Assembly: GCA_951406725.2 (NCBI GenBank)
Contig: OX597838.1
Location: 1,984,001-2,048,000 of the forward strand
Length of the DNA: 64,000 nt
Reading direction: 5' to 3'
Origin: Octopus vulgaris
Lineage: Eukaryota
Positions 12,989-29,590 of this stretch are shown one piece after another. Each line of letters begins with the position of its first letter. The first letter of the stretch is position 1. The notes below the pieces were generated by a model. The model ran no database searches and was not told the origin of the DNA. It worked only from the letters and a program-made list of their open reading frames with translations. A program made the translations under genes and the position numbers.

Positions 12989-13025
<37 letters not shown>

Positions 13026-13028
<3 letters not shown>

Positions 13029-13256
13029 GGTCCCGGGTTGAGTCGGGGTTAACCACAGTAAATAAGGTACTCAATACATAGCAGAGTAAATTAATTTATT
13101 TTATAGAAGGAGCTTCTACAGGACTAGAACTGTTTCATTCAAATGAAATCATCAGGAAGCTTGCTGTCAAAGTCTGATTTTGACAGCAAGCTTCCGGATG
13201 ATTTCATTTGAATAAAACAGTTCTAGTCCTGTAGAAGCTCCTTCTATAAAATAAAT
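13026..13256. mobile_element. Short Penelope-terminus-like element with 78-bp inverted duplication, embedded in (TA)n
   Basis: Arms 13094-13171 and 13179-13256 are reverse complements with 2 mismatches and a 7-nt loop GTCTGAT. The element is flanked by (TA)n on both sides and contains an HHR motif. Confidence 0.75.
13111..13161 (-). ncRNA. Type-I hammerhead ribozyme motif (intact core, weak stem II)
   Basis: Minus strand AGCTTC-CTGATGA-TTTCATTTGAAT-GAAA-CAG(TTCTAGTC)CTG-TA|GAAGCT: 6-bp stem I, CUGAUGA, stem II TTC/GAA (U-U at the closing position), GAAA, stem III ACAG/CTGT, GUA cleavage triplet. Confidence 0.75.
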
Positions 13257-13659
13257 ATATATATATATATATACATACATAAAGAGAGACAGAGAGAGAG
13301 AAAGAGGGAGAGAGAGAGGGACGCTAGCATAAATACGTATGTAAATATACCCATACGCACTAATATAGAAACGCATACATACGTGCATATACACAGGGCG
13401 GGACGTGTAGTACAGGCGAACATAGGGATGCGTACATATAGACATACGCATACATAGACATAAATAGACATACGCACACACATATAGACCGACAGAGAGA
13501 GAGAAGGAGAGAGAGGGGAGAGAGAGAGAAAGAGAGATACATATATGTAGACGCATACCATTACATACACATAGGTATTGACAGAAACACTTAAAGGGTG
13601 GCGTAAGCACAAGCATTTAGACATTGAACAGAGTCACATATAGTTACACACATACATAG

Positions 13660-13892
13660 ATAAGCTGACACTCCGTCGGTTGCGACGAGGAGGGTTCCAG
13701 TTGATGCGATCACCGGAGCACTCCACAGACACGAGATTCGGCGTAACACAGAGTTCCACAAGGGTGGCCTTTTGAAATACATTGGAGCAACGAGAAATAA
13801 AGTGTCATGCTGAAGGACACCACGCATCGTCGGGAAGTGAACTCACGGCCTTACGATCGCGAGCGGATACGTCAACCACTGAGCCACGTGCC
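13660..13892 (-). mobile_element. tRNA-derived CORE-type SINE, degenerate
   Basis: Minus strand GGCACGTGGCTCAGTGGTTG (A box)..GTGAGTTCACTTCC (B-box-like)..GTGTCCTTCAGCATGACACTTTATTTC; related to 21314 and 33145. Confidence 0.75.
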
Positions 13893-28048: not shown

Positions 28049-28122
28049 CCATGGCTCTGATGAGTCGGCAATGACCGGGTGAAACTAGCCGAGTCGTTCA
28101 TCGGTTTCGGCTAGAGCGATGG
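28049..28122 (+). ncRNA. Degenerate type-I hammerhead ribozyme motif
   Basis: CCATGGCT-CTGATGA-GTCGG(CAATGA)CCGGGT-GAAA-CTAGCCGAG...TTCGGCTAG-AGCGATGG. Stems I, II and III are recognisable, but the UH of the cleavage site is missing. Confidence 0.6.
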
Positions 28123-29590
28123 TTTTTAATCATGTAGATAATTTACGCAGTGAGTTTATTAATATGGTTGGGGTAATTAATTCAACGGAGATTGGTTAAA
28201 TTTAGAGCCAACATGCTTAATGTGGAGAGGGTGGTATTTTCCAACTCAATAATAGAAACTTGTCCAGTTGCTTACATTTGATGAAAATGTCAGACCTAGA
28301 ATTTAGTAGCTCTGCAGAATTCTTAGATTTAAAAAGAATATGGGATCTTCCGGCGACGTAAAGCTTGTACCTCCATTAATGTATAGCATGGAAGCTCCAC
28401 ATAATGGACGTGCGAGAGTATTGTTGGAGCATTGTGTAAATATCCTCACCACTGGTGTCATTTTCCTTTTTCCTCTTGTCCTTCCTCGTTCTTTCCAGCT
28501 TCTTCTCAAAGAGCCGTCAAATTGCATCTAAAAAATTTGAATGGTTACTTGCAAATACACGGAATGCTATGTAACCTTATCCGACCATTGTATTTTCAGA
28601 GACATAAAACCCACACGTCCTTGCCTGAAATCCTGTGTATATTAAATGATGTTTATCTGTTATTGGATGACTTAATTTTAATGTTGACCCCCACCGGTAA
28701 CAAAACTGCACATATGTGCGTATGTGTGTGTGTGTGTGTATGTGGCGTGTGTGAGTGCAACATGTGTACGTATGCATGTATATCTTGTGTTTATCATACT
28801 TTTTCCTGCATGTGCTCGGTGTATCATAACCAGTAATTCTGTTAAGGACATCAGCAACCGCAACACTTTGCTGGAAGCAGACTGGATAACGATGTTTTGC
28901 GCAGCACTTTCAAGTCACCAGTAGCAATCGTACATAGAACTGTAAAACAAACTCTACTCTATGTGTGCACATGTATGTGTATGTGTGTATGTACGTGTGC
29001 ACTTGTGTGTGTGTATGTATGTATGTGTGTATGTATGTATGTAATTTATGTATGTATGTATGTATGCATGTACGCTTGTGTATTTAAATGTTTCCAAAGA
29101 AATTAAACTAGAAAAGCGAAATTTGATCTTCCTCTTCATGAAGAGGAGACATGGTCGAGTGGACTGAGACTTGACTAAATACTTATGACTTATGAATAAA
29201 GTGTTGCAATGGCAGTTTCAAGCCCCTTGCACAGTTTCACTTACGGCTTCCTAAGGAAAGTACTTTTATTCTACATTACCTCAATTAACCTGACTTCTGT
29301 CGAAACTATTCTAATCTATATCCTGAGAAAAATTAAATATCACATAGCAATTGTTGATGGATATCTCCGATCACCGAAGGTCAATAGATTGAACTGTAGG
29401 TGTCGCTCTTGTACGTGGCGCAAATCAATATTTATAGGCCAACCTATCGCCTTTTGCCATCCTGGCGTTCTAGATGGACATTAAATGATCGCCAATGAAG
29501 ACACATCTACACACGCACACACACACACATACACACAAATATACACATACACTCAATGTAGTCATGTCTGTCTGTCTGTTTCTGTCTCTG

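Follow-up and report, generated by a model that had tools for sequence, protein, structure and literature searches.

A short two-armed hammerhead hairpin of Octopus vulgaris as a probable head-to-head insertion of a Penelope-like element terminus

Penelope-like elements (PLEs) of the Hydra clade with a C-terminal endonuclease (EN+), including Hydra-1_Obim, are the closest described relatives of the octopus sequence analyzed here. They encode a reverse transcriptase (RT), a linker with the motif CxCX5C and a GIY-YIG EN with CxxC/CxH, as described by Craig et al. 2021 (PMC8557442). The same paper describes (TA)n targets, a hammerhead ribozyme (HHR) at the 3' end and 5' truncation, and it has already reported that a PLE can carry an inverted, 5'-truncated copy of itself with a tail on one side only. 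Head-to-head inverted arms, a tail at one end and palindromes at the junctions are also features of the Penelopes of Adineta vaga (Arkhipova et al. 2013, PMC3846280). The hammerheads of PLEs are of type I and have a palindromic loop III suited to dimers, and in Schistosoma, HHRs have already been noted to occur in pairs, one on each strand and 100-700 bp from each other (Cervera and de la Pena 2014, PMC4209133). In Poseidon PAc of Anolis, two RT starts define the tail, the targets are AT-rich and both strands are extended (Frangieh et al. 2024, PMC11167929). The HHR of this element cuts only together with protein and is dispensable for insertion in vitro.

The octopus family shares these features other than the last (the two RT starts and the extension of both strands by analogy), and we also find clear differences. 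Judged from sequence, the two-armed layout is the known PLE architecture and the octopus copies are a new family of it. Hydra-clade PLEs are generally shorter than 3 kb in all and have tails of 30-40 bp (PMC8557442), whereas the octopus element has a low-complexity 3' region of ~2.9 kb and a tail of 68 nt. The HHR listed for Hydra-1_Obim has other stems than the octopus motif, and three short words of this motif (11-13 nt), searched as DNA or RNA, have 0 matches in the Craig et al. 2021 supplement. For these two reasons, we regard the octopus PLE as another family than Hydra-1_Obim. Unlike in the A. vaga Penelopes (PMC3846280), very short stubs dominate in the octopus and the junctions cluster at HHR stem I. 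In contrast to the PLE hammerheads of PMC4209133, the octopus motif is without the G10.1-C11.1 pair and extra base after A9, and its stem III has 4 bp. Poseidon PAc differs in that it belongs to another clade and its HHR overlaps the start of the ORF (PMC11167929).

The locus lies in a window of 64,000 nucleotides (the whole stretch that was analyzed; contig OX597838.1, positions 1,984,001 to 2,048,000), and all coordinates without a locus handle are positions in this window. Its features are as follows.

12992..13025, no strand: left flank, target microsatellite (AT)17, read from the sequence; family copies start in (AT)n
13026..13093, minus strand: 68-nt tail, carried by a single arm; the fixed end of the family is at 13026 (93 tail-bearing arms)
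13094..13171, minus strand: left arm, the 3' end of the PLE; positions 1-146 are 100% identical to other copies
13111..13161, minus strand: type I HHR motif with intact core and a predicted cut between 13117 and 13116 (sequence, folding and family conservation)
13157..13162, no strand: AAGCTT palindrome, the 5' strand of stem I and the apex of 27 of 71 family pairs
13172..13173, no strand: 2-nt head-to-head junction
13174..13256, plus strand: inverted, 5'-truncated, tail-less arm, element positions 69-151
13189..13239, plus strand: mirror HHR with private U4G (13196) and G12A (13214), from pattern searches
13254..13273, no strand: right flank, target microsatellite (AT)n; a target-site duplication is not distinguishable from it

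The complementary arms (13094-13171 and 13179-13256) are 78 nt each, and complementarity stops outside both of them. They have exactly two mismatches, 13196 T>G at HHR position U4 and 13214 G>A at HHR position G12. The 7-nt loop is mostly element sequence, because the right arm follows the family continuation found at locus L012 up to 13174. The left and right arms extend to element positions 146 and 151, respectively, and are joined via two bases. Such a hairpin is far beyond what chance sequence would give, yet it is the norm for its family.

On the minus strand, the left arm consists of, in order, stem I AGCUUC, CUGAUGA, the stem II region, GAAA, CAG..CUG, UA and GAAGCU. It has the type I core C3 U4 G5 A6 N7 G8 A9, G12 A13 A14, A15.1-U16.1 and H17 of the consensus that we took from PMC7151607 and PMC3088659, and the right arm departs from this consensus through U4G and G12A. 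Thus, the type I HHR motif proposed earlier within a PLE terminus is present with its full core, as a candidate ribozyme with a predicted cut site. Stems I, II and III have 6, 3 and 4 bp; I and III are able to form, and the loop of stem III holds the palindrome CUAG. Stem II is closed by U10.1-U11.1, not by G10.1-C11.1; Perreault et al. 2011 (PMC3088659) describe this closure as a natural variant of HHRs. Folding predicts that the isolated motif misfolds, with stem II pairing at 1-2% and a competing hairpin that pairs G12-A14. As a dimer, stem III is predicted at -12.8 versus -1.4 kcal/mol, and a gain from dimerization has also been reported for PLE HHRs. A conserved downstream hairpin (13104-13118, minus strand, UAGAAG:CUUCUA), which is also seen in the DNA fold, could hide the cut site and form in competition with stem I.

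In 29 arms the element sequence continues beyond the motif. Changes seen in more than one of these copies are located mostly at N7, in loop II and in the flank upstream, and the core and stems otherwise do not vary, with the 3' 19 nt of the motif fixed by the search pattern. This constancy fits selection for the HHR in source elements. There are no compensatory changes in stem II, where 7 covariation matches compare with 5 in the control, i.e., chance level. Rfam gave no hammerhead among the 150 matches listed of 540 for the window, nor among the 86 matches for the element, and we rejected its miRNA matches as hairpin noise.

This layout is widespread in the genome. In a DNA search of the octopus's own genome, the best 40 of 281 candidates included 14 with a second, inverted arm that stops at nearly the same point as in this locus. 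The 30-mer covering stem III and the cleavage site has 5,774 exact copies, and exact patterns returned 537 subfamily motifs when the core was left free and 1,454 when stem II was left free. The 121 loci that we compiled comprise 175 distinct arms; the 68-nt tail is present in 93 of these and absent from 82. A tail-less inverted arm, 38 bp to 17.6 kb away, accompanies 71 of the 93 tail arms, and the inverted terminal duplication suggested for this locus is the norm of the family. By a first count, 32 of 71 tail-less arms have their start exactly at element position 69, and most of the others start at 61-77. Subfamily site 139 is concordant between the arms in 32 of 32 pairs, site 126 shows no discordance in 68 pairs, and site 119 is discordant in 2 of 70. 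Both arms usually appear to come from one source element. The two pairs discordant at site 119 (L067 and L078) may go back to two templates, to recurrent mutation or to gene conversion. In L103, the two arms (G000:C1:76238983 and 76241652), which are 2.7 kb apart, share a G5C change that is absent from the other G5 mutants; either one template was copied, or conversion took place later.

Long copies connect the hairpin terminus to a coding element. Beyond ~2.9 kb of low-complexity sequence they have an ORF that is oriented like the HHR, and loci L098, L112 and L115 contain a YRDD RT and a VY..YIG EN. The stretch of L112 between the ORF and the HHR is colinear with L092, L115 and L117. The translations of L112 and L115, read by eye, contain a CxCX5C linker and a GIY-YIG-like EN with CxxC before E and CxH after N, and no CCHH. 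According to section 11 of Craig et al. 2021 (PMC8557442), CxCX5C, CxxC/E and N/CxH are marks of the Hydra clade. By sequence linkage, the parent is an EN+ PLE with a predicted RT/GIY-YIG ORF linked in sense to the hairpin terminus. Its clade is assignable as Hydra by the linker and EN motifs, as read by eye, and by insertion into (TA)n; a Neptune label was abandoned for Hydra on the linker motif. ESM Atlas neighbours were found at 0.94-0.97, with RVT_1 in 11% of one cluster. For the RT and EN fragments, Pfam gave sub-cutoff unrelated matches alone, and a PDB search was uninformative. We rejected a non-LTR retrozyme, since the locus is without tandem monomers and the family has a coding parent. 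Loci L098 and L099 (G000:C4:101015300-101035000) are nested two-armed insertions of 8.6 and 17.6 kb, which hold ORF pieces from two different Hydra-like PLE families.

We suggest, with high confidence, that the hairpin is a short head-to-head insertion into (AT)n, derived from a high-copy PLE and its 3' end, and that both core changes are likely neutral and private to this copy. Chance mutation is likely here because core changes are no more frequent than other changes across the family, as detailed below. By analogy with Frangieh et al. 2024, the PLE enzyme would cut (AT)n and extend both target strands. Reverse transcription would start at two sites, element positions 1 and 69, on the RNA of one source element, and the two short cDNAs would then be joined head to head near HHR stem I. 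Selection would keep the ribozyme intact in source elements only, and the stubs would decay evenly. A transcript of either strand is predicted by folding to form a 78-bp duplex (-138 kcal/mol), as was anticipated when the HHR was proposed to be locked in dsRNA if the hairpin is transcribed. Within this duplex neither motif is predicted to fold or cut, and therefore there would be little for selection to act on. Fold-back copying of one cDNA, which is discussed by Arkhipova et al. 2013 (PMC3846280), also fits the arm data.

The arm ends and inversion apices of the family (L148-L218) pile up at the 5' strand of stem I, which corresponds to 13155-13162 of the window. We sampled the first 100 of the 5,774 30-mer matches (the start of C1), which gave 103 arms with a shorter anchor. 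Of these arms, 29 continue into the element and 74 are truncated. The truncated arms stop at position 136, where stem I has its last base, in 24 cases, at 130-135 in 27 and before that in 23. Thus, 51 of the 74 end within the 7 nt of the stem I 5' strand, give or take a few bases for ends at palindromic junctions. A perfect palindrome with AAGCTT at its centre is formed by 27 of the 71 pairs; at the locus studied here, the turning point lies 10-15 nt beyond AAGCTT. One subfamily has a 6-bp palindrome a few bases upstream; 15 arms extend that far, and 0 of them turn there. Junctions that are one T short of a perfect palindrome recur in both polarities (L153, L158, L160, L178 and L181).

Because of the 51 of 74 arm ends, the 27 of 71 AAGCTT palindromes and the 0 of 15 arms at the upstream palindrome, we raise the tentative and rather unlikely idea that the HHR has a second job in insertion, in which stem I would mark the RT stop and the joining of two target-primed cDNAs. 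Possibly, an HHR dimer formed via the palindromic stem III loop holds the two templates head to head. The pile-up has a plain, ordinary alternative in microhomology at AGCT. Fold-back of a cDNA through its own stem I copy is not favoured by DNA folding, and self-folding of the cDNA does not account for the pile-up. Our literature search, which covered mostly texts other than supplements, found no report of a junction hotspot at stem I. Through the pile-up, a relation of ribozyme folding to insertion becomes accessible to testing.

The original prediction had raised selective inactivation as a possibility, for example if the plus-strand HHR lies in sense within a host transcript; in this reading, both core mutations were favoured as cleavage stoppers. 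Both differences do fall at conserved core bases, and Li et al. 2026 report, for vertebrates, that retrozymes are excluded from introns and exons. A double core hit was estimated to have a chance of about 3%, and we obtain 4.2% for a single locus. However, exactly two differences are present in 7 pairs, with both in the core in this locus only, and the chance of at least one such pair among the 7 is ~26%, so the low figure does not carry over to the sampled family.

The family data do not support selective inactivation. When arms were compared with each other over element positions 76-131, leaving indels aside, 11 of 47 differences were in the HHR core, which makes up 21.2% of the compared sites (p=0.41). 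The core share is 3/18 in tail arms and 8/29 in mirror arms, this locus included (p=0.26). For the C1-C5 subset (52 pairs), 6 of 33 differences are in the core, 3/16 in the tail arm and 3/17 in the mirror arm, even though most of these pairs were sampled with non-core sites fixed in the search pattern, which makes a core excess easier to detect. Private changes in all 71 pairs number 29 in mirror arms versus 18 in tail arms (p=0.14), a difference that comes partly from the choice of L001-L030. Of the 537 motifs in the genome, 40 are changed in the core, or 0.77% per site, which is comparable to the overall rate of 0.56-0.74% per arm site. In searches with 30-mers, core G5, G8 and G12 were mutated in 9, 10 and 8 copies, compared with 11 and 7 copies for two Gs outside the core. 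A single 30-mer served for G12 and the controls, and the G8/G5 pattern was shifted by 7 nt. Tail arms hold 12 of the 27 core mutants. U4G has 1 match genome-wide, which is this locus, and G12A here is one of 8 G12 mutants. Thus, core changes are not commoner than non-core changes in two data sets, and there is no arm bias. The G12 mutants did appear to be concentrated in short hairpins (8/8 versus 9/18 for controls, p=0.023), but this was not repeated in the G8 and G5 mutants (11/19, p=0.75) and all core mutants together gave 19/27 (p=0.22); we therefore dropped it.

One HHR core mutation is expected to suffice for inactivation, so a second would give little gain, and the motif in the hairpin is predicted to be locked in duplex regardless. 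In the search for a host gene, Pfam matches were found for 0 of 150 ORFs of the window (150 of the 167 complexity-filtered ORFs, of 516 in total) and for 1 of 60 ORFs of the flanks, RVT_1 alone (60 of 98 ORFs, 90 kb); short exons escape both searches. Selective inactivation is very unlikely for this locus; selection might act on a small intronic subset of copies.

Alternatively, the hairpin could serve the host as co-opted dsRNA, i.e., as an ADAR substrate, a source of endo-siRNA or a self-blocked ribozyme switch. The stable duplex of 78 bp is predicted for both strands, and short hairpins are abundant, with 23 short pairs among the first 100 of the 5,774 matches. However, this hairpin is young, decays neutrally and is one of very many, with nothing specific to the locus. 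The 47 private changes, in RNA sense, include 9 A>G, 8 T>C, 10 C>T and 6 G>A, and have no A-to-G excess; passive editing, if it occurs, would not equal function. We consider such a role highly improbable.

Hairpins are hard to sequence, and 7 of the 8 G12 mutants lie on the plus strand of the assembly, as could be expected if the two differences were assembly or polishing errors. In short-read run X1, which may be the assembly's own sample, one contig spans 13143-13241 at a depth of 30.6 with 0 other letters, and hence the junction and both variants are present in short reads; the contigs of runs X2, X3 and X5 end at the flanking (AT)n. The 78-bp hairpin with two mismatches, at 13196 and 13214, is confirmed as first described. 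The G8 mutants are distributed as 3 on the plus versus 7 on the minus strand. Errors are largely refuted by the X1 contig and are the remotest of these explanations.

As a neutral stub, the single locus is of little weight, and hairpins with one intact and one dead HHR recur by chance. The thousands of young two-armed stubs are of wider use, since they record how PLE inversions are made. In addition, the many near-perfect hairpins are candidates for passive dsRNA.

The stem I region has a further feature. On the minus strand at 13158-13175, C/U and a stretch rich in pyrimidines precede the AG of stem I in several subfamilies, an arrangement that resembles a 3' splice site. At this locus the triplet is AAG, and there is another CAG 5 nt upstream. 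In the Penelope of D. virilis, an intron ends at helix I (Cervera and de la Pena 2014, PMC4209133).

Two other parts of the window attracted our attention. To the right of the hairpin, 13640-13730 is another very high-copy repeat, with a summed contig depth of >100,000 in all four runs. A further CUGAUGA...GAAA core, unrelated to the first and flanked by GC-rich stems, lies at 28050-28130 on the plus strand and possibly represents another hammerhead family.
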